A stretch of 55,072 nt of DNA from Deltaproteobacteria bacterium (GCA_030638575.1 DAOWEJ010000105.1:1-55072), one strand, 5' to 3'; counted from the first letter of the stretch, positions 15,703 to 51,952 are shown. Notes: generated from the sequence alone by a model not told the origin. Numbers and translations are program-made.

Positions 15703-15735
15703 AAATATCCTTTTTGTTTTTTATTAGCCGGCTTC

Positions 15736-17748
15736 CTATCTTCCCAGCTTCCCGGCCTCCTGGCCTTTTCCAAATATTTTGACATCATCCGGCTCTTGAA
15801 TCGGATGAGTAGGGAAATTTTGTATAAACTGGTGATCTAAAAGCTGAGTGGAAAGAATTCCGACCATGGCCATATTCTCCCGTTCACTTAAAATTTGCCC
15901 TTCCTTCTTCCTGCATTTCATAACAAGCCTTGAAACCTTTTTATTATCAAAATAGCCGCTTCTCTTGATTGCACTTTCTGACAGCAAATCTTCCACATAA
16001 TCGACAGGTTGATTACCAAAAAAACATTTACTTATGGGTGCACGATACGGTTGTTTGGGTCTGTCAATTACTTCAGCAGGAATAAGGCCGCGAGCTGCCT
16101 GCTTTAAAATGAATTTTTCCTTAAGCCCGTTCATTCGATAGCATGGCGGAACCCGGGTGGCAAACTCAACCACGCGATGGTCCAGAAATGGATAGCGTCC
16201 TTCGACGGCATTTGCCATGGCCATCCGATCTCCTTGGGAAGACAAAAGATAATTTGAAAGAAAAAGATTGATTTCAGTAAATTGGGCTCTTGACAGCGGA
16301 TGCCATGACATGAAATCCGCCGGCAGCGTAGAAACAAATCTATCGAAAAATTCTTCCTGGGTTCCGGTTTCCTTCTGCAAATCATCCGAAAAGAAACCTC
16401 TCAGGTGGGCAGTATTTTGCCATCTGAGCAAGTGAGAATAAACAGGTGAGTTAGTTTCGGAAAGACTTTTTCTGAAAAATCCCTCCAGAAATGCTTTTGC
16501 CTTACCGTTTTGCTGGGCAAAAACATAGGGGTAAAGTCTTTCAAGGAGCATGGGCCGCATCCTGGAATCAGGGTTCCGTGCCCAGAACCTTCGCACCCTG
16601 TCTTCTTTGAAGATATTATAGCCGGCAAATATCTCATCAGCCCCTTCACCTGTCAGCACTACCTTGAAGTTGTTTTCTCGGACCAGCTTTGAAAGATGAT
16701 AAAGGGGAGCGGGAGCTGTCCTTAGTACTGGCACTTCCGTGTGCCAGATGACTTGAGGGAAAGCCTCTCCGATATCTTTTTCAGCACACCTAATATCTCG
16801 ATGTTCAGTTTCAAGGGCATTAACTGCTATTTCTTGAAAAGGAGTTTCGTCGAAACGGCTATCTGTGAAACTGACTGAAAAAGTACGAAGTAAATTGTTG
16901 AAATTGCGTTTTACGAGTGCACTGGTATAGGTGCTGTCAAGTCCGCCGCTTAGATACGCTCCAACAGGAACATCCGCACGGAGCCGAATTCTTGCAGCAT
17001 CACGAAGCAAATGGTTTAATTCTTCTGTCCATTCTAATAAAGGTCGTTCACTTGGGTATTCATCACTTTGACTGTTAAAAGATAATTTCCAGTAGCGATG
17101 TGTTCTGAAACCCTTCTTAGAGAACCTGGCATAATGCCCCGGCGGAACCTGATATATATCCCCGAACGGCGTAGAAGAACCAACAGGTGTCCAGCATGTA
17201 AATATATCTGAAAGTGTCTGTGAATCGAGTTTGCGTGGAATCGTTGGGTCAGCAAACAGAGCTTTTACTTCAGAACCGAATACCAGCCGCCCGTTATTTT
17301 GGTAGTAGAAAAGAGGCCTGATACCCACCCTATCACGCCCAAGCAGCAAGGCTTCCTTTTTTTGGTCCCACAGGGCAAATGCAAACTGTCCGTTCAGGTC
17401 ATTAAACATTTCCGAACCGTGTTCCTCATATAAATGCACCAGGACTTCCGTGTCGGTTTGAGTGTAAAACCGGTGGCCCCGTGCAACTAAATCTTCCCGG
17501 AGTTCCGGGTAGTTGAATATTTCACCGTTGAACACTATCCACACAGATCGATCTTCATTGTGAATCGGTTGATCTCCGCCACTTAAGTCAATGATACTCA
17601 ACCTTGCATGCGCCAATCCCGCATTAGGGCTTATGAAAATACCTGAGGCATCCGGCCCCCTGTGACGAATAAGTCCGATCATCCGGCAAAGGGTGCCTTG
17701 CATGTCTTCAGCGTGATTATAATTAATTATTCCTGCTATTCCGCACAT
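15736..17748 (-). CDS. asnB: Asparagine synthase (glutamine-hydrolysing) family amidotransferase
   Basis: MCGI N-terminus, HRGPD, NGEIFN, LSGGLDS, GEGADE. Confidence 0.92.
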   Translation of the reverse strand: MCGIAGIINYNHAEDMQGTLCRMIGLIRHRGPDASGIFISPNAGLAHARLSIIDLSGGDQPIHNEDRSVWIVFNGEIFNYPELREDLVARGHRFYTQTDTEVLVHLYEEHGSEMFNDLNGQFAFALWDQKKEALLLGRDRVGIRPLFYYQNNGRLVFGSEVKALFADPTIPRKLDSQTLSDIFTCWTPVGSSTPFGDIYQVPPGHYARFSKKGFRTHRYWKLSFNSQSDEYPSERPLLEWTEELNHLLRDAARIRLRADVPVGAYLSGGLDSTYTSALVKRNFNNLLRTFSVSFTDSRFDETPFQEIAVNALETEHRDIRCAEKDIGEAFPQVIWHTEVPVLRTAPAPLYHLSKLVRENNFKVVLTGEGADEIFAGYNIFKEDRVRRFWARNPDSRMRPMLLERLYPYVFAQQNGKAKAFLEGFFRKSLSETNSPVYSHLLRWQNTAHLRGFFSDDLQKETGTQEEFFDRFVSTLPADFMSWHPLSRAQFTEINLFLSNYLLSSQGDRMAMANAVEGRYPFLDHRVVEFATRVPPCYRMNGLKEKFILKQAARGLIPAEVIDRPKQPYRAPISKCFFGNQPVDYVEDLLSESAIKRSGYFDNKKVSRLVMKCRKKEGQILSERENMAMVGILSTQLLDHQFIQNFPTHPIQEPDDVKIFGKGQEAGKLGR

Positions 17749-17755
17749 GGATTAT

Positions 17756-17878
17756 ATAGCTCATAGCTGATAGCTCAGAGTTGACAGCTCAAAGCTGATA
17801 GTTCAGAGCTCATAGGGGTTAGGTACTGACAGCTCAGAGATCAAAGCTGATAGGAGTTAGGTGATAATCATGGGTCAT
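17756..17878. repeat. 7-mer array (AGCTSAT-type) on the 3' side of the four-helix-bundle gene
   Basis: ATAGCTC ATAGCTG ATAGCTC AGAGTTG ACAGCTC AAAGCTG ATAGTTC AGAGCTC... Confidence 0.95.
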
Positions 17879-17891
17879 AACAACTAAGCCT

Positions 17892-18251
17892 TTAAGCTTT
17901 AATTGAATTGATGAGGCCGGAAAGCATTCTATTTATTTCTTCGGCTTCTGAATACAATTCATTATACTTTTCTCGTTTCAGCCATTTCTTCTTTAGAAAT
18001 ATTTGTAGCATTGTTACAGTCTCGTAAAGAGACCCCCTGGAAATGTACAAAAAGTGTTTAAACTCCTTTTTCGAATATCTCCCTTTCCCTTCCGATATAT
18101 TCAAAGCCACTGAAGTACTAGAAGCTTCTAACTGTTCGATGAGCCTATAATGTTTCCGTGACGTATCGAGTTCGTCAACGAGATTAATCACTGAAACTGC
18201 AAAATCCAATGCCCTTTGATAAACTTGTAATTCCTCAAAAGCAAATCCCAT
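17892..18251 (-). CDS. Four helix bundle protein (23S rRNA IVS protein / TIGR02436 family)
   Basis: FEELQVYQRA, QLEASSTSVALNISEG, FLYISRGSLYE, MLSGLI; likely start ATG 18251 (AAGGA RBS); track start 18266. Confidence 0.92.
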   Translation of the reverse strand: MGFAFEELQVYQRALDFAVSVINLVDELDTSRKHYRLIEQLEASSTSVALNISEGKGRYSKKEFKHFLYISRGSLYETVTMLQIFLKKKWLKREKYNELYSEAEEINRMLSGLINSIKA

Positions 18252-18267
18252 TATCAATTCCTTCATT

Positions 18268-18353
18268 TATGAGCTGTGAGCTACCATCTGTCAGCTATTC
18301 CCTTACCTATCAGCTATTCCCTATGAGCTGTGAGCTATTACCTGTGAGCTATC
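18268..18353. repeat. Inverted 7-mer array (TGAGCTR) on the 5' side of the four-helix-bundle gene
   Basis: TATGAGCTGTGAGCTA...TATGAGCTGTGAGCTATTACCTGTGAGCTAT, reverse complement of the left-array unit. Confidence 0.95.
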
Positions 18354-18354
18354 C

Positions 18355-19710
18355 TCATCTTCCCGTCCTGTATGGCTGACTGCGAGTTAACGTTATGCTC
18401 AAAAGGCCTCGATTTTCAACGTAATCAATTGGATCAGTTGAGTCAAAGTTGCGATAGGAATATTCAACCCTTATGCTAAAGTTGATGTTTGAAGACAGCC
18501 ATCTTTCATATTCATATGTAAGCCCGACGCCGCCTCTTGTGGTCTTGTCTCTACGCACAGGGTCCTCGTCCTCATATTTGTCCTGCCGGTATGAACCGAA
18601 AATATCTCCGGTAACGCGCCTTGTAAGATTGTATTCCGCTTCCAGGCCGGCCTCATAAAATATTGACAACCCCAGGCTCTCGGCACCAAAATATGCTCCA
18701 TCGTACCCACCTGATCCTGCTAAGCTTACCGAGCCTCTTTGAAATGTTTTTTCAAAAACGACATCTGCTGTCGGGCCAGATTTGTCATCACGTCCTTCAA
18801 TTTGCTCGTCATAATCCTGGACAAAATAACCGACATCAACGTCAATTCTTTTATCCTGAGCAACCTCGTAATTAAAACCGATATATGGATTATAAATTTG
18901 ATAATCTTCTTCGGTTTTTTCAAAATCAACGTAAATATGGGTATAAGCTAAATGCCCTTCAAGTTGCCGGGAAAACCGTTTTATCAATCGTATATTGCCG
19001 TCCCATGCATTAAAATCATCTGATGGTATACCAATAAATCCATCTTCCCTGTCGTACTCAGCCTTTATATATGATACTATTATTTCACTACCCCATCGTG
19101 GAGTAAACCAATAAGTAAGACCTGCTGACGGAATATGCCGTGAATTGTCTTCAAGGGTTTCATCTTCGTTTTCAAGGATGCCGTACGCATATTCAAGATA
19201 GAAAGAATCGTTTTCACCAAACTGATTGGTAAACCTTAAACTGGCAATGTTTCTAATGTATGGCTCTCTTGATGTTCTTAAAGTAGGATCTGCTCCTATG
19301 GCAGGATCATCGGAACGCAAATAATAAATATCTTCCTCTCCAAACGGATCTTCAGTTCGCACGAAAGCATTACGTATTTCCAGCCTGCTGTTTCGCGTCA
19401 GGTCTGACCAGCCGTAAAGCAGAGCAGTATGGCGCCATGTGTCGTTCTCAGAGAACTCGTTGTAAATGGCATATGCAGGATCGTACGATATTTCTATTCC
19501 GCTGTGTTGCCACAAGAGTTCAGTAGTAAATCCTAGAGAGATAACGGTAATAAACTCATCTTCTTCAGCATCTTCCAACAGGAAATAATTATCTGTATAT
19601 TCACCGCTAACAGACATCCTTGGTAAAAACGTGGCCTGGAAACCGGCAGCGTTAGATGCAATAAATAAAATAGTGGATATTGCCACGCAAAGATAAATTT
19701 TAAATTTCAT
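18355..19710 (-). CDS. Outer-membrane beta-barrel protein (EPS/PEP-CTERM-associated porin-like)
   Basis: Signal peptide, alternating aromatic beta strands, C-terminal YVENRGLLSITL; next to the Wza-like gene. Confidence 0.75.
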   Translation of the reverse strand: MKFKIYLCVAISTILFIASNAAGFQATFLPRMSVSGEYTDNYFLLEDAEEDEFITVISLGFTTELLWQHSGIEISYDPAYAIYNEFSENDTWRHTALLYGWSDLTRNSRLEIRNAFVRTEDPFGEEDIYYLRSDDPAIGADPTLRTSREPYIRNIASLRFTNQFGENDSFYLEYAYGILENEDETLEDNSRHIPSAGLTYWFTPRWGSEIIVSYIKAEYDREDGFIGIPSDDFNAWDGNIRLIKRFSRQLEGHLAYTHIYVDFEKTEEDYQIYNPYIGFNYEVAQDKRIDVDVGYFVQDYDEQIEGRDDKSGPTADVVFEKTFQRGSVSLAGSGGYDGAYFGAESLGLSIFYEAGLEAEYNLTRRVTGDIFGSYRQDKYEDEDPVRRDKTTRGGVGLTYEYERWLSSNINFSIRVEYSYRNFDSTDPIDYVENRGLLSITLTRSQPYRTGR

Positions 19711-19787: not shown

Positions 19788-20105
19788 TTAGCCACCCCAG
19801 TACCATCTACCGGAGCTACAGGGAAGGCAGACACACACAGACTCACACGGACATCTGTCCGAGCGGGTCGCTCGGATAAATACAGTCATCCGCCAAAGGC
19901 GGATAAAACTGATCATTTTATCGTTGCCAAAGCTGATAATCAGCAAATTCGCAGCTATTGCAAGCAGGCTAAAATATAATGTTTTTTACTGCCCAAAGGG
20001 CATACAACCTTTTCCCGGTCGGACTCGGCCATGAAAAAAATTTGTCTGTGTATGTCTGTGTGGAGCTTGCCGAGTCGAAGCGTGCGAAGCCTGGTCGGTG
20101 GCTAA
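19788..20105. repeat. Family-Q inverted 10-mer cassette
   Basis: TTAGCCAC[insert]AGACACACACAGACTCACACGGAC ... GTCTGTGTATGTCTGTG[insert]GTGGCTAA with internal hairpins; orphan right ends at ~9961-10009 and 52811-52899. Confidence 0.8.
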
Positions 20106-28334: not shown

Positions 28335-28687
28335 TGGCTGAAAAATACTTGAAATTTATCCTTGTTGATTGAAAAAAAATTAATTATAAGAATAGAGGAT
28401 TGGGTTGATAAATGTCAATATTTGACTTTGTAATTTATTGCTGAATAATGATACTAAACATTTAAATGATAAGGGATTGCATGAACAGCTCATAGCTCAA
28501 AGCTCTCAGGAAAAAAGGATTTTTCATCATTTAATCCCGCTTGCAGCGGGACTATTAACGCATTGCTTTTGTCCAAAAAAAATAGTATATTTCTTAACAA
28601 AATGTTCGAGGTCTGATATTTGACTTTTTAAGCAAAATTAGCCAAATTTTCAAATAGCAAAATTATTCCAGAATAAAAGGAGGTATT

Positions 28688-29242: not shown

Positions 29243-29320
29243 AGGCTTGGAAGCCTGGAAGCTATGAAGCTAAAAAGCCTATCAGCCTCCCGGCTTCATA
29301 GCCTCCCAGCTTCATAGCTT
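29243..29320. repeat. Empty inverted 8-mer cassette (GGAAGCTW / WAGCTTCC; family K)
   Basis: AGGCTTGGAAGCCTGGAAGCTATGAAGCT then AGCCTCCCGGCTTCATAGCCTCCCAGCTTCATAGCTT, directly followed by the RBS. Confidence 0.85.
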
Positions 29321-31708: not shown

Positions 31709-31808
31709 GCTGGAAAGCTGATAGCGGAGGAAGCTGGGAAGATAGAAGGTTAGGAAGCTAAAAAACTTCTCAGCCTCCTGGCTTCATAGCTTCCCAGCTT
31801 CATAGCTT
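31696..31808. repeat. Empty inverted 8-mer cassette (family K)
   Basis: Same layout as 29243-29320, also ending GCTTCATAGCTTTTTTAGGAGG. Confidence 0.85.
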
Positions 31809-32407: not shown

Positions 32408-32477
32408 GGGGCGAGAAAGCTCTTAGCTCAAAGCTGATATCTCATAGTTAATAGAGTAAGGGCCGGGAAGGGATCAA

Positions 32478-35620: not shown

Positions 35621-35775
35621 CGAGCGCTTCGCTTTAAGAGCACTACGTTCGAAGAGCGCTTCGCTTGAGGATTAAGGCTTTAGCCTCAAGGACGTCAGTC
35701 CGCTCTTCAAGGACGCAAGTCCGCTCTTCAAGGACGCAAGTCCGCTCTTCAAGGACGCAAGTCCGCTCTTCAAGG
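35621..35775. repeat. Inverted hairpin-studded arrays including a 4.3x 21-bp tandem repeat
   Basis: TCAAGGACGCAAGTCCGCTCT units at 35686, 35707, 35728 and 35749; AAGAGC+GCTTCGCT-type units at 35621-35669. Confidence 0.9.
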
Positions 35776-38566: not shown

Positions 38567-38669
38567 TTGAGCTATGAGCTTACAGGCTTCCCAGCCTCCC
38601 AACCTGCTTCTTGCCAGCCATGAGCTATCAGCTGTCACCTATGAGCTATGAGCTGTCAGCCATCAGCTC
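38567..38669. repeat. Orphan 7-mer (TGAGCTA) and 8-mer arrays overlapping the trpE 3' end
   Basis: TTTGAGCTATGAGCT..GGCTTCCCAGCCTCCC..ATGAGCTATCAGCTGTCACCTATGAGCTATGAGCTGTCAGCCATCAGCTC. Confidence 0.85.
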
Positions 38670-40136
38670 CAACGCTTTCTGCATAGCCATTGCCTTGTTG
38701 AGTGTTTCTACCCGTTCTTTCTCCGGATCGGAATCGGCCACAATCCCGGCCCCGGCCCGAACCGTCATCCGCCCGTTCTCTATGCAGGCGGTCCTGATTG
38801 TAATGGCCATATCCATATTCCCGTCAAAAGAAACATAACCTACCGCACCGCCGTAAGGTCCCCTGGGCTCTTGTTCAAGTTCGTCAATAATCTCCATTGC
38901 CCTTACTTTGGGCGCCCCGGATAAAGTCCCGGCGGGAAATGTGGAAGAAAGAAGATCCCATGCATCACAACCCGATTTAAGATCGCAGCAGATGTTCGAA
39001 ACCAGATGCATGACATGTGAATACCGCTCTATAACCATCAGATCGGTAACCTGGACTGTTCCGGTCGCTGCCACCCGTCCAAGGTCATTTCTCCCCAGAT
39101 CGACAAGCATAAGGTGCTCGGCCCTCTCTTTCTCATCTTTAAGAAGTTCATCTGCGTTGACTCTGTCCTCCTGTTCGTTTTTTCCCCTGGTCCGCGTACC
39201 GGCAATAGGACGCAGTGTTGCAATCCCTTTTTCCAGCCTGACCATGGTCTCCGGAGAAGACCCGACGAGCGCAAGGCCATCCAGATGGAGAAAATAAAGA
39301 TATGGGGACGGGTTGATAAATCGCTGCGCTCGGTAGAGAGACCAAAGATCTAACAGAGGTTCACAAACAAAGGGTTGAGAAATGACGGTCTGTATAACAT
39401 CTCCCTTCTGTATATATTTTTTAACCTTCTCAACCTGAGATAGAAAGATCTCATCTTTCAATTGAGCTTTCAGCTCATAATTCCTCCGAACAGGCAAATC
39501 ATCAATTTTCAAATTTTCCTTTAAATCCTGTTTTGTTTTTGCAAGCATTGACTCGATACGGCTATGTGCGGTTTCGTATATTTGACCTGTATTTTCTTTC
39601 CCATCCGTAAAGGAAATTACAACGCAAAGCAGAGTGTTACGAACATTGTCAAAAATAAGCATCTCATCCGGTACCATGAAATGAGCAAGAGGCTGTTTTT
39701 CCGGCAGCCTGTTGGGGATCGATTCAATAAAAGAGACCATCTCATACGTTAAATAACCTACCAGCCCTCCCCAGAATCTCGGAAGACCGGGCACAAAGGC
39801 GGGTTTGAACTTTTTCATAAAATCTTTCAGGGCATTGAACGGGCTGTCATGATGAGAGATCTTTTCAGAACACCCGTTTTTTTCTATCTCAATAAAATCC
39901 GGATAAACCTTAATATAACAGCGGGCAGATGCACTCATAAAACTGTATCTTCCCCATCGTTCACCACCTTCCACGCTCTCGAAAAGAAAGACAGGCCCTT
40001 TGTTTTTATAGATTTTTCTTAAAAGAGAAACAGGTGTTTCAGTATCTGCCAGCACTTCAGAACAAACCGGGATTACATTATAATCTCTGGCCAGGCTCTT
40101 AAACCGCTCTTTGTCCGGAAATTTATTTAGCTGCAT
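38646..40136 (-). CDS. trpE: Anthranilate synthase component I
   Basis: LFESVEGG..GRYS, NPSPY, SSPE, EHLMLVDLGRND, GAPKVRAM, AGAGIVADS. Confidence 0.97.
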   Translation of the reverse strand: MQLNKFPDKERFKSLARDYNVIPVCSEVLADTETPVSLLRKIYKNKGPVFLFESVEGGERWGRYSFMSASARCYIKVYPDFIEIEKNGCSEKISHHDSPFNALKDFMKKFKPAFVPGLPRFWGGLVGYLTYEMVSFIESIPNRLPEKQPLAHFMVPDEMLIFDNVRNTLLCVVISFTDGKENTGQIYETAHSRIESMLAKTKQDLKENLKIDDLPVRRNYELKAQLKDEIFLSQVEKVKKYIQKGDVIQTVISQPFVCEPLLDLWSLYRAQRFINPSPYLYFLHLDGLALVGSSPETMVRLEKGIATLRPIAGTRTRGKNEQEDRVNADELLKDEKERAEHLMLVDLGRNDLGRVAATGTVQVTDLMVIERYSHVMHLVSNICCDLKSGCDAWDLLSSTFPAGTLSGAPKVRAMEIIDELEQEPRGPYGGAVGYVSFDGNMDMAITIRTACIENGRMTVRAGAGIVADSDPEKERVETLNKAMAMQKALELMADSS

Positions 40137-48314: not shown

Positions 48315-48338
48315 CAAACCAAACCCCTTATTTTTGGC

Positions 48339-48637
48339 TCTTCTCCAAATTAGTTGGAGAAGAGGATTCTAGGATTCAAGGGTTCAAGGGTTCAAGTGAA
48401 TGCAAACGGCTTGATACAGATGACATAAACACTTGCGTCTTCTCTGCCCTTACTCCTTAATCGTTTCAAAGTATGTCTATATAAAAAGACGGTTCCAAGA
48501 GTCAGGGATTTTTCTGTATGTATTTGTTTTCCGGTCATTTTCACTCGAACCCTTGTTTGCCCGGCGTAGCCGAAGGCGAAGCTTGGACCCCTTGAATCCG
48601 TGAACCCTGATCAATCGACCAACTCTTTGGGAGATGA
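48339..48637. repeat. Family-M cassette: outer IR plus inverted 8-mer (GGTTCAAG) arrays around a non-coding core
   Basis: TCTTCTCCAAATTAGTTGG / CCAACTCTTTGGGAGATGA; arrays 48363-48400 and 48540-48608. Confidence 0.8.
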
Positions 48638-48858
48638 TCTTTATTTTATAACATTTTAGCGCTTAAAATATTATCTTATTCAGGTAATTTTGAAATTTCC
48701 ATATGCCATTTATGCCATACAAATCGTATTTGTAAAGCATATAGTTACGACTTTCGGGTGCGGCTTCCATCGTAACATTAACTGGAAAACCCCATTATTT
48801 CGCGACTGTAAGCCACTACTACGCCTCATGATTATCCCGCTTTAGCGGGACACGCCTT

Positions 48859-48994: not shown

Positions 48995-51952
48995 TCAGTT
49001 TTTTAATACCCATTTCTCAATTACCTCAAAGACAAGCTCCTTTTTAATCGGCTTTTTGATATAATCATTCATACCTGCTTCAAAACATATCTCCCTGTCA
49101 CCCTTTATGGCATTGGCGGTCATGGCGACAATCGGAACATGTTCCGATTGAGTTGATAGCTGACAGATGATAGCTGATAGGTTTGGTTCTTCCTTTGCTG
49201 CATGCTTTGAGCTATTGGCTGTGAACTGTGAGCTGTCTGCTTTGAGCTGTGAGTTGTGAGCTATGAGCTCTTCCTCCCACTTTCTGATTTCCTCTGTTGC
49301 CTCAAGACCGTCCATTTCAGGCATCTGGATGTCCATGAAAATCATGTCAAAATCGTCCGGAGACGAGGTGTATTTTTCAACTGCTTCCCTGCCGTTATTG
49401 GCAACTTCCACATGATAACCTGCCTTTTTTAGCATTAATGTTGCCAGCTTCTGGTTGACAGGATTGTCCTCGACAAAAAGTATACACATAGAATGCTTGG
49501 CTTCTTCCTTAATGGAATGTTGGGTAACAATTGCGCTTTGCTCCGGTTTTTCTTTGAGCTGTGGGCCATGAGCTGTAAGCCTTTCAATCATCTTTACAAG
49601 TTTTTCTCTGCGAACAGGCTTACTCAAGAAGCCGTCAAATCCTGCGTTTTCGCATTCTTTTGCGCTCCTCTCCATAAGTGAAGAAAGGGCAAGAAGCACT
49701 ATTTGGGTCGGTTCGATCCCGTCATTTGACATTTGACATTTATCATTTGCGTCTTCTTCAATCAATGACTTCTCCCAATTTCGGACTTCTCTTGCCACAT
49801 CATACCCGCTAACGGACGGCATCTGTATATCTAAAATGCAAAGGTCAAAAGGTTCCCCGGTTTCCAAGGCTTTTTGCAGTGCATGTACAACCTCCTTTCC
49901 GTCCAGCAGAGTAACTGCATTAATTTCTGCCGAATTTAAAGTATGCCTTAATATCTCCAGGTTTGTACGGTTGTCATCAACAATGAGAATCTTTTTACCG
50001 ACAAGCGAAACAGGAGCAACTCTTTTGACTTCTACTTTTTCAACCTTTTTGAGCCATGCGGTAAAGTGAAAAACGCTTCCGGGGTTTTGGTCGGAGCGTA
50101 GCGTAGATCCCGCAGAAGGCGGGATTGGTGGTTGAGTAGTTGAGTGGTTGAATGAAGGGCTTTGAGCCCAGACATCTCCCCCCATAAGCTTGGATATTTT
50201 CTTGCATATGGAAAGACCCAGGCCTGTTCCTCCGTACTTTCTCGTGGTTGAACCGTCCGCCTGCTCAAAGGGCTCAAAAATGGCGGACAGTTTTTCTTCA
50301 GGAATACCTATACCGGTATCGCGTATTTTGGCATGAAGCTTAATCCTTTCTTCATCTTCCTCCTCCACCTCAATGGAAAGTTCAATCTCACCTGTTTCAG
50401 TAAATTTTGGGGCATTACCCATAAGGTTTGTAAGAACCTGCCTGTACCGCGTCGGGTCACCTTGAACCATTGCAGGAACGTTATCCCCGATACGGCACAA
50501 AACCTCGATGGGTTTTGATTCAATCTTCGGGCGAATCAGTTCACAGATGTCGTAGGCAAGAAGCTCGAAATCAAAATCTATCTCTTCAAAATCAAGTTGC
50601 CCTGCCTCGATCTTTGAAAAATCTAGGATATCGTTAATCAATGAGAGCAAAGATTCTCCGCTTCTTTTAACTGTTGCCACATAATCGTTCTGCTCTTCAT
50701 TAAGGTCAGTATCAAGGAGCATGTCTGAAAAACCTATAACTGAATTCATGGGTGTGCGGATTTCGTGGCTCATGTTGGCAAGAAATTCACTTTTTGCCAT
50801 GCTGGCAGCCTCGGCCATTAAAGCCATATCGTTGGCCCTCTCAATGGCCTTCTCAAGCTGGCGGTTGGTTTCAGCAAGCTGTTCTTCGGCCTGCTTGCGC
50901 TCTGTAATATCAGAATCGACCCCCCGATAGCCGATAAGCTCACCTTTTTCATCAAGTATCGGAATTCCGCTGGTTAAAAAACAAACCATTTGTCCGTCTT
51001 TTGTAAAATTCCAGTTTTCCAGGTTACGTATTGGGCGCTTATCTTTGACAATCTCACTAAAGATAGCGCCGATTCTTTCCTTCTCATCAGGATGCATGAA
51101 ATCAATGGGGGTTTTGCCTATCATTTCCTCTGCCTTATAACCCAGGATTTCTTCCACCTTTCCCGAGCAATATGTATACACCCAACTCCTGTCTGTCTCC
51201 CAGATCCAGTCAGACATGCTTTCCACAATGTTTCTAAAACGGCTTTCTGATTGCTCGCGATTGGTGATTTCAGACTCAAGTTTCTCGTTGAGTTTTTCAA
51301 CATGTTTCTTTTCATTTTCTAAATGCTTAATCAGATTGGTATTTTCAAACCGAATTTCCAATGAACGAAAAATACTTGTGTTCAAACGCAGTGCGGTAAC
51401 TATCATTATAACCATGAAGAGAAATATCATTCCTGCTATAGCGATGTAAAGATCACTTCCCTGCAGTAGGAGTCGAATAATAAGGGGAATCGATGCTGTA
51501 AGACTGAAAGCTAAAAAAGCTCTCATCATTATTGAATATGTTCCCAGCGCTCCTGCTATCATCCCCCCCATAACGAGGATAAGAAAAATCTGGTGCAAAT
51601 CAGAGTTCACACTAAACAGAAAGAATCCAGCAAAACCCCAAACAATACCGCTAACGGCTATTCCTGTTATAAGCACTATATTCCAGTAATCGGCTTTAAG
51701 AAGTTTAGATGAACTGCGCTTGTATTTATACAGCGATATATACCTGATGAACGTTATCAGAAAATTGCTGAGAAGCCATATGATCAATACCGTATGCGAA
51801 ACAACATTCCAAAGGATGAAAGTCAGGATAGCCGAATTCACTATAGTTGCGATCATGCTTACAGAAACGTTTCCATAAAGGATATTAACTTGCTCTGCGT
51901 ATAAACCTGTTTTATTTGTGTTTTTTGACATATTTAAAAGCTGTCCTTTCAT
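48995..51952 (-). CDS. Membrane-bound hybrid histidine kinase (TM-PAS-HisKA-HATPase-REC-REC) with repeat-derived insertions
   Basis: [44 protein letters not shown]. Confidence 0.95.

Follow-up and report, generated by a model that had tools for sequence, protein, structure and literature searches.

A PF05635 gene between inverted heptamer arrays in an exopolysaccharide-type operon, and its likeness to the intervening sequences of 23S rRNA

Introduction

The closest described relatives of the element reported here are the intervening sequences (IVSs) of 23S rRNA that carry an open reading frame (ORF). In Coxiella burnetii, the parts of the published account drawn on here place such an IVS in helix 45, where it is closed by a 28-bp terminal stem and has three tandem heptamers, GACAGAT, ahead of an S23p ORF, with the number of heptamers varying between strains and RNase III cutting the IVS at the first of them (PMC4990558). 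The same parts report the ORF as decaying, and they cite an older proposal that the IVS ORF serves mobility, together with Leptospira as a second bearer of ORF-containing IVSs (Ralph & McClelland 1993, as cited in PMC4990558). Here, we analyze a stretch of 55,072 nt from a Deltaproteobacteria bacterium (GCA_030638575.1 DAOWEJ010000105.1:1-55072; below, the window is this whole stretch), in which a gene of the same ORF family, PF05635, stands between two inverted arrays of a 7-nt unit at 17756-18353. We call the gene and its arrays the cassette, and the arrays its arms.

Cutting by RNase III has also been described in mRNA, as Correia elements within Neisseria transcripts are cut at their inverted repeats (in the portion consulted of the review PMC10969869). 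Among insertion sequences, those of the IS66 family have ends that begin GTAAGCG and make 8-bp repeats (PMC11946415, in excerpt), and the family member ISDge4 has the ends GTGACTACTCAGCA and GTAACTGCTCAGCA (PMC12898284, in excerpt). PF05635 proteins resemble Avd of the diversity-generating retroelements (DGRs) (PMC10053308, in excerpt). Our search of the literature, supplements aside, found no description, outside rRNA, of a PF05635 gene standing between inverted arrays of tandem repeats. To our knowledge, PF05635 / TIGR02436 is a very common family of 'hypothetical' proteins that has no known function outside DGR Avd.

Results

The cassette lies in an exopolysaccharide (EPS)-type operon on the minus strand of the window, whose products are Wzz/GNVR, P-loop kinase-like, Poly_export, BBP2_2 / PEP-CTERM-type outer-membrane protein (OMP), asparagine-synthase-like amidotransferase and NAD-synthase-like proteins. 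The OMP stop and the ATG of the asnB-like gene are separated by 606 nt, which the cassette fills with the following parts, listed in the direction of transcription:

18355-19710, minus strand: OMP gene (BBP2_2 / PEP-CTERM-type), the upstream neighbour, stop codon at 18355-18357
18268-18353, minus strand: 5′ arm (coding strand), an AGCTSAY array
18252-18267, minus strand: spacer with a Shine-Dalgarno-like GAAGGA before the ATG at 18251; an in-frame ATG also lies at 18266
17892-18251, minus strand: gene for a predicted four-helix-bundle protein, PF05635 / TIGR02436
17756-17862, minus strand: 3′ arm (coding strand), an RTSAGCT array, the reverse complement of the 5′ units
15736-17748, minus strand: asnB-like gene (asparagine-synthase-like amidotransferase), the downstream neighbour, ATG at 17748

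The 5′ arm, identified by direct reading, Tandem Repeats Finder (TRF) and an inverted-pair search, is made of AGCTCAC, AGCTCAT, AGCTGAT and AGCTGAC units at spacings of 7, 14 and 21 nt, and TRF recovers arrays at 18268-18353 (periods 7, 14 and 21) and at 17756-17815 (period 7 with 8.6 copies, also 14); the spacer was read directly. The double unit AGCTSAYAGCTSAY, with at most one mismatch, is matched 22 times in the window where 0.09 matches are expected, a number that 0/100 shuffles reached. An earlier note on this DNA, made from the sequence alone, had described a four-helix-bundle gene enclosed by inverted heptamer arrays that fill a stop-to-start gap. The profile match, the arrays and the gap coordinates all agree with that description, with the cassette starting one base (18354) after the OMP stop and ending seven bases (17749-17755) before the asnB ATG. 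A known RNA family was ruled out, as 17500-18600 contains no Rfam match at E ≤ 1.

Profile matches, sequence relatives in the PDB and substitution rates characterize the gene. Read from the ATG at 18251 its ORF has 119 aa, and 124 aa if the one at 18266 is the start (17892-18266), with the PF05635 match beginning at residue 11 of the longer version. The matches to PF05635 (E 3.9e-32, 111.1 bits against a cut-off of 33.8) and TIGR02436 (113.9 bits against a cut-off of 24) assign the predicted protein to this family. By sequence it resembles 2rld (E 5.4e-12) and 2gsc (E 8.6e-9), each with five chains per PDB entry, 2gsc being described as a pentamer (PMC4990558, in the parts drawn on). The protein is under purifying selection, with dN of 0.146, dS of 1.85 and dN/dS of 0.079 against a 77%-identical relative (L098); synonymous sites are saturated against the seven other relatives tested.

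Comparison with related genomes establishes how the cassette came to this site. In the same-genus genomes G149 and G018 the OMP gene ends ∼20 nt before asnB, and the junction reads stop, 18 nt, ATG in both (L017/L139 and L140) as well as in a further close relative (L018). Because these three have only the 18-nt spacer, the cassette entered that spacer as one block, in this lineage. Empty alleles in relatives, whose absence the earlier note had named as a mark against its idea, thus exist in the form of three cassette-free 18-nt junctions. Four more distant relatives have OMP-asnB gaps of 12-15 nt, and across 80 asnB loci an OMP homologue lies upstream in 14, six of which have a gap of 12-22 nt, while a PF05635 gene in the OMP-asnB gap is found in 0/80. 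Just downstream of the asnB orthologue, two other metagenome-assembled genomes have a PF05635 homologue (L040 6071-6412 and L055 6760-7032); therefore, EPS operons received such genes at different gaps. We also considered a target duplication built from the relatives' stop plus CT (TAGCT, which resembles the start of a unit), and dropped it, since chance alone can give one such tetramer in 20 nt.

To what extent the arms act as RNA or as DNA was approached through their pairing. The best inverted arm pairs span 51 nt at 75% and 40 nt at 80%. In the predicted RNA fold of the whole cassette, 56 long-range pairs join 18261-18353 to 17783-17860, at a minimum free energy of −170.1 kcal/mol versus −148.0 ± 7.8 for 20 shuffles, none of which was as low, and the two arms cofold at −79.5 kcal/mol versus −42.6 ± 4.1 for 200 shuffles of one arm. 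The arrays had been proposed to be mutually complementary, and the stable cross-pairing in both calculations bears this out. Arm alignments from 31 cassettes contain 1241 Watson-Crick pairs, 53 G.U-type mismatches, 58 A.C-type mismatches and 185 others, so that there is no excess of G.U over A.C (p = 0.70).

An orthologous AGCTSAY hairpin, present in the same stop-to-start gap of four genus members (G000:C77:20485-20573 and orthologues, L158-L160 and L164), shows what can change in place: the arms vary from two to ∼6 units, the loop is inverted in G100, and the units have drifted to GGTTCAA/AGCTCAA-like forms in G018. Since there is no G.U bias, and copy number and loop orientation change at this orthologous hairpin, arm complementarity looks to be maintained at the DNA level rather than by selection on sense RNA. 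In our reading, slippage and arm-to-arm recombination keep the arms alike, and a flip leaving the gene antisense would either disappear or be followed by decay. The earlier note's label of an 'mRNA intervening sequence' is accordingly kept for the kinship with IVSs, namely the ORF family, the ORF in the loop of an end stem and the heptamer arms; on the other side stand the missing G.U bias and the arm changes at the DNA level. By analogy, RNase III excision of the cassette from mRNA is plausible, since the Coxiella IVS and Correia elements are both cut by this enzyme.

Public sequencing runs that contain cassette DNA are available as assembled contigs, so RNA ends cannot be read from them. The RNA-Seq-labelled run X9 contains the cassette and asnB at ≥99% identity, and contigs of X9 and X7 (two RNA-labelled runs from two studies) both begin at 17773, where DNA contigs continue, one X7 contig spanning 17773-18356; this is a weak hint only, as contig ends at 17773 can also arise from repeats and the RNA label of X7 is a guess (its size equals that of a DNA-labelled entry). 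In X9 the k-mer depth is 27.5-47 for cassette contigs and 17-22 for asnB contigs, figures that cannot rank expression. Joints of 17773 to 18268, 17773 to 18321 (with ∼23 other letters between) and 17748 to 18573 have sides of 20-30 nt and most likely represent other family hairpins or other organisms, not an empty allele. Where the RNA-labelled runs leave parts of the OMP gene uncovered, this was discounted as evidence.

The source assembly (2.31 Mb, 76% complete) contains 16 PF05635 matches, four of them full-length and intact and the others broken or partial. Arms are the rule around these genes, with a flank complementarity score of at least 16 at 11/15 of the assembly's own PF05635 loci, versus a score of at least 14 in 19/2000 random intervals. 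Each family in the assembly has its own arm unit, which is AGCTSAY, GGTTCAC-like, TCAAGGG-like, GAAATTA-like, GAGCGCT-containing or ACCCGTA-like. Period 7 accounts for 572/1895 TRF rows of the assembly, and array pairs within 1.2 kb are inverted in 117 cases versus direct in 32, the loops of the inverted pairs measuring ≤30 nt in 32, 31-120 nt in 37, 121-300 nt in 28 and more in 20. Mid-size elements of the GGTTCAC family carry internally deleted copies of an intact C8-type gene; one of these (C57:63405-63664) retains gene residues 1-27 and 84-128 at 82-100% identity. Because the mid-size elements contain internally deleted genes, the short forms of this family are, judged by their sequences, derivatives of gene-bearing ones.

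The same arrangement extends beyond this genome. A homologue at E ≤ 1e-10 occurs in 109/301 sampled Desulfobacterales genomes, and 19/29 loci fetched from other genomes of the order have arms scoring at least 14. The arm unit changes stepwise with protein identity, both arms always together: AGCTSAT at 66-100%, AGGTGAT at 74%, AGCTCAA/AGCTGAA at 55-64%, the 8-mers AGCTGATN at 53-55% and unrelated units below 50%. On these alignments, arms and protein diverge together between genomes. Assessed by eye, the loci of the order stand in varied contexts, among them an arginine operon, a further OMP-Wzz junction and sites at the ends of unrelated genes. The ORF has both neighbours in its own orientation at 13/19 armed order loci and 7/15 own loci, and both opposed at none (0 antisense to both neighbours versus 20 co-oriented), counts that rest on a crude longest-ORF rule and on related genomes that are not independent. 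In 17600-18500 there is no sigma-70-type promoter-like site, and the sole terminator-like site in the scanned region lies inside asnB. The sense orientation together with the lack of a promoter-like site points to expression from host transcripts.

Several observations on unit sequence and on distant homologues stand apart from these results. Units with an AGCT core persist despite saturated synonymous sites, while the G018 hairpin has drifted, and unit-specific sequence conservation was kept as a lead only. Palindromic 4-mer cores (AGCT, TCGA, AATT, TTAA, GCGC) recur in several units; this was dropped, as by a rough, uncomputed estimate ∼1/3 of random cyclic heptamers would have one. Distant PF05635 homologues without arms occupy other settings (L116, L119, L120, L126, L117 and L125), several as tandem pairs. 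Four distant armless homologues are found upstream of a conserved gene with a product that, by eye, resembles an ERCC4-type nuclease at its start, and two lie upstream of a ribbon-helix-helix-like gene.

Three other arm families of the genome, T1, T2 and T3, have terminal inverted repeats (TIRs) outside their arms and 8-bp duplications of AT-rich targets:

T1, ends GGATCATCTCCC / GGCTCTTCTCCAA: exact 8-of-8 duplication in 5/13, 7-of-8 in 2
T2, end GTAACTACTCAGG: exact 8-of-8 duplication in 3/16, 7-of-8 in 2
T3, end GTAAGCGTTCACGG: exact 8-of-8 duplication in 2/21, 7-of-8 in 3

None of 50 displaced controls reaches seven or more of eight. With at most two mismatches, the end motifs occur 211 times (GGATCATCTCCC), 119 times (GGCTCTTCTCCAA), 75 times (GTAACTACTCAGG) and 75 times (GTAAGCGTTCACGG). 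The ends of T2 and T3 are of the IS66-family type, and the exact 13-nt T2 end GTAACTACTCAGG bounds two of 12 inspected IS66-family transposase loci of the same order, L134 (G037:C3, 1361-2940) and L135 (G023:C37, 807-2495), where in G037 six matches to the L134 transposase score equally and the ends were read for L134. Both are single-ORF elements of ∼1.6 kb that contain no heptamer arms inside their ends; L134 is flanked by an exact 8-bp duplication, and the right flank of L135 lies outside the locus. Some elements with T2/T3 ends hold internally deleted PF05635 genes as remnants. Given the shared ends, the 8-bp duplications and the armless autonomous elements, we take it that hairpin modules, some with PF05635 remnants, borrowed IS66-type ends, between which they became packaged and were amplified. 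The cassette in the window has neither GTAA(GCG) ends nor an 8-bp duplication.

A T1 copy of ∼305 nt lies in the window between two sensor-kinase genes (48336-48640), with ends AGATCATCTCCC... and ...GGAGAAGAGCC and TCAAGGG-type arms. Its core is not PF05635 and is common to at least 11 copies, its flanks TAAAATAA/AAAAATAA form a 7-of-8 duplication, and one arm has an extra GC-rich insert of ∼35 nt that is also found in arms of other copies.

The AGCTSAY family itself is represented at five further sites in the window:

28487-28535, plus strand: half hairpin of three AGCTSAY units, the loop core AAAAGGATTTTTCATCATTTAA and a small GC hairpin
32418-32446, plus strand: single AGCTSAY array, no partner arm seen
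38567-38669, minus strand: two AGCTSAY arrays in the gap between trpE and trpG, whose last units overlap the trpE C-terminus (ORF 38646-40136)
49151-49270: complete short hairpin of an AGCTSAY arm, a ∼25-nt loop and an RTSAGCT arm
49553-49580: short AGCTSAY array in the linker region of the same 985-aa ORF that holds the hairpin at 49151-49270

The earlier note had listed these as orphan arrays; all five sites were confirmed, but they are not orphans, as most are short-loop hairpin members of the AGCTSAY family. Short-loop members share a loop core of ∼22 nt in either orientation, and the core AAAAGGATTTTTCATCATTTAA of 28487-28535 is common to them. In the assembly the family forms 41 clusters with 10 inverted pairs, of which only the pair in the window encloses a gene, while two pairs contain nested elements of other families. 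One of these has a T2-type (CTGAAGG-armed) element in its hairpin loop (G000:C106:1362-1620), and another hairpin has two further families nested in it (G000:C23:15709-16022). AGCTSAY hairpins occur also in the same-genus genomes G100 (89% complete) and G149 (73% complete).

A 985-aa sensor-kinase ORF on the minus strand (48995-51952) has the hairpin at 49151-49270 in frame within its receiver domain. The arrays in this hybrid sensor kinase are translated, with ∼40 residues added in a receiver-domain loop, and recall the palindromic elements found within Rickettsia genes. At 38567-38669 the arrays are interleaved with a second repeat family, with a unit of about AGCCTCCCAGCTTCAT or the 8-mers GCTTCCCA, which recurs at 29284-29318, 31766-31808 and 15731-15753. 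The next intercistronic gap of the EPS operon (403 nt, from the Poly_export-type gene to the OMP gene) holds inverted ACACAGAC-type arrays of ∼10-nt units around a 189-nt loop (19828-20061), and a near-perfect tandem repeat of 21 nt × 4.3 copies, with 97% matches, lies at 35686-35775.

Discussion

We favour the explanation, with a probability of roughly 0.55, that the locus is an IVS-type gene cassette in an mRNA operon, in which a PF05635 gene with its own ribosome-binding site is enclosed by inverted AGCTSAY arrays. The gene would be expressed from the operon's read-through transcript, on which the arms could pair into a stem of ∼56 bp that brings the OMP stop and the asnB start together. 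RNase III would be likely to accept such a stem as substrate, as it does the homologous IVS of Coxiella. At the DNA level the arms may double as the ends of the element, and the protein might act on the element's own nucleic acid, which is the weakest step. Families T1-T3 move as elements that are bounded by TIRs and make target duplications of 8 bp, and in two of these families the ends are of the IS66-family type.

Several results weigh against this explanation. Against the three empty sites no target duplication is visible at the cassette, where the spacer is much diverged, and neither the cassette nor any of the 10 further paired AGCTSAY hairpins that were read shows a terminal repeat beyond the arms or a target duplication. 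The missing G.U excess and the crudeness of the orientation counts belong here as well. Ten of the 29 loci fetched from the order have no arms (one is cut by a contig end, and the remaining nine are mostly below 42% identity and in other contexts), therefore the layout is not universal for the PF05635 family. In G100 and G149 the cognate protein was not found at E ≤ 1e-10, so arms can persist without the gene. IS66, ISL3 and reverse-transcriptase (RVT_1) genes were not found in the 76%-complete assembly, and neither was an RNase III gene, which is present in 3/3 same-genus genomes.

A narrower account would make the locus purely an mRNA intervening sequence, whose arms exist for RNase III cutting, so that the gene is looped out, the stop-to-start junction is restored and selection acts on the RNA stem. 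The predicted stem is indeed stable, with the OMP stop at its base and the asnB start close by, RNase III excises the homologous IVS of Coxiella at the heptamers (PMC4990558, in the parts drawn on), Correia elements are cut by this enzyme at their inverted repeats (PMC10969869, likewise in part), and the contigs of X9 and X7 that start at 17773, with the X7 contig of 17773-18356, lend a weak hint. However, across the 31 cassettes the 53 G.U and 58 A.C mismatches show none of the expected excess, arm copy number and loop orientation vary at the DNA level, X7 may be a DNA run and repeats, too, give rise to contig ends, and the arrival of the block is left unexplained; we therefore regard this account as unlikely. 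The arms could instead be intercistronic hairpins of the host, akin to repetitive extragenic palindromic (REP) sequences or bacterial interspersed mosaic elements (BIMEs) and serving as mRNA stabiliser, attenuator or structural DNA, with the four-helix-bundle gene a passenger that landed in or was copied into one loop. This would fit a family of 41 clusters and 10 inverted pairs with a gene in one pair only, short-loop members with a loop core of their own, one hairpin kept at the same site in 4/4 genus members, and hairpins in genus members for which no cognate gene was found. But three close relatives have no hairpin at the cassette site, only the 18 nt, the arm unit tracks protein divergence across the order, which is unexpected for a passenger, and in the GGTTCAC family the short forms appear to derive from gene-bearing ones (e.g. 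C57:63405-63664), which makes a host origin of the arms quite improbable in our view.

The remaining alternative is an ordinary MITE (miniature inverted-repeat transposable element), mobilised in trans by a DDE transposase and carrying the ORF by chance. Other families of this genome do fit, having TIRs and 8-bp duplications, and the order has autonomous IS66-family elements to match; a T1 copy stands in the window (48336-48640). Yet in the AGCTSAY family and the cassette neither a duplication nor a TIR external to the arms was seen, AGCT-core relatives in other genomes show no GTAA-type ends in the flanks inspected, and two autonomous IS66-family elements have no heptamer arms inside their ends, so that the arms are not part of the transposase ends. 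We consider this origin for the cassette very improbable.

Going further than the IVS-type cassette that we favour for this locus, PF05635 genes with inverted-array arms might form a widespread, undescribed class of autonomous hairpin elements, of which the 23S rRNA IVSs would be the special case seen first. The pentameric protein would recognise its own units and maintain or spread the element and its gene-free derivatives, as the REP-associated tyrosine transposases (RAYTs) do for REPINs, with host transcription giving expression and IS66-type transposases being borrowed at times. We offer this generalization tentatively, as a possibility that has the odds against it. If PF05635 members usually are cargo of hairpin-armed cassettes, the thirty-year-old question of the rRNA IVSs would become testable in ordinary operons. 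If true, this would also explain where a large part of the tandem 7-nt repeats and of the hairpins between cistrons in such genomes comes from, and would provide annotators with a rule for spotting insertions that split operons at the RNA level. The link to IS66-type ends provides a first concrete way of amplification for some families. New here are the TIR-bounded arm families with 8-bp duplications, the in-place change of arm copy number, the loop flip and the absence of G.U bias in arm mismatches.

Among known systems, the ORF-bearing 23S rRNA IVS is like the cassette in its ORF family (S23p = PF05635), in having the ORF sense to the host transcript and enclosed in a loop whose stem is built from the complementary ends of the element, in the tandem heptamers of its 5′ part and in its sporadic distribution among relatives; the old idea that the ORF serves mobility applies to both. 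In contrast to those IVSs, the host transcript of the cassette is a protein-coding operon and not a helix of a 23S/16S rRNA gene, the arms are arrays of ∼85-105 nt on both sides versus a 28-bp stem, a Shine-Dalgarno-like sequence lies inside the loop, and the protein is under purifying selection where the Coxiella ORF is reported to decay. Excision by RNase III, described for the Coxiella IVS, is for the cassette a plausible prediction.

The operon MITEs (Correia/nemis of Neisseria, ERIC of Yersinia and Chunjie of Geobacter) are, in the portion consulted of their review, also small, bounded by inverted repeats and multi-copy, they lie between cistrons without gene disruption, and deletion derivatives are common among them, whereas they are non-coding and have defined TIRs and target duplications (PMC10969869). 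The cassette has inverted arms as a MITE does, but it holds a conserved gene, its arms are tandem arrays of 7-nt units, and no target-site duplication is seen. To IS66-family insertion sequences and their MITEs the likeness lies in the T2/T3 families elsewhere in the genome, with their GTAACTACTCAGG or GTAAGCGTTCACGG ends and 8-bp duplications, while the window cassette has no such ends and the autonomous elements have no heptamer arms.

With REP/REPIN-RAYT systems the cassette shares a hairpin repeat, specific to its family and scattered over intergenic spacers, and a gene with inverted copies of that repeat on its flanks, but its gene encodes a 120-aa helical bundle, not a Y1 transposase, and its arms are tandem arrays. 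The genome has three Y1 matches, one of them a full-length gene (C83:49401-49739), and the TRF rows report no heptamer-arm arrays around any of the three; a RAYT/REPIN reading was rejected, as the Y1 genes are not associated with heptamer arrays. Avd of DGRs belongs to the same superfamily as the cassette protein, whereas the cassette gene stands alone between repeat arms, with EPS genes as neighbours and no template/variable repeat pair, and a DGR reading was rejected as the 76%-complete assembly has no RVT_1 match. We therefore read the cassette as neither a DGR nor a REPIN-RAYT pair, but as an element that resembles a gene-bearing MITE in appearance and an IVS in the way it works.

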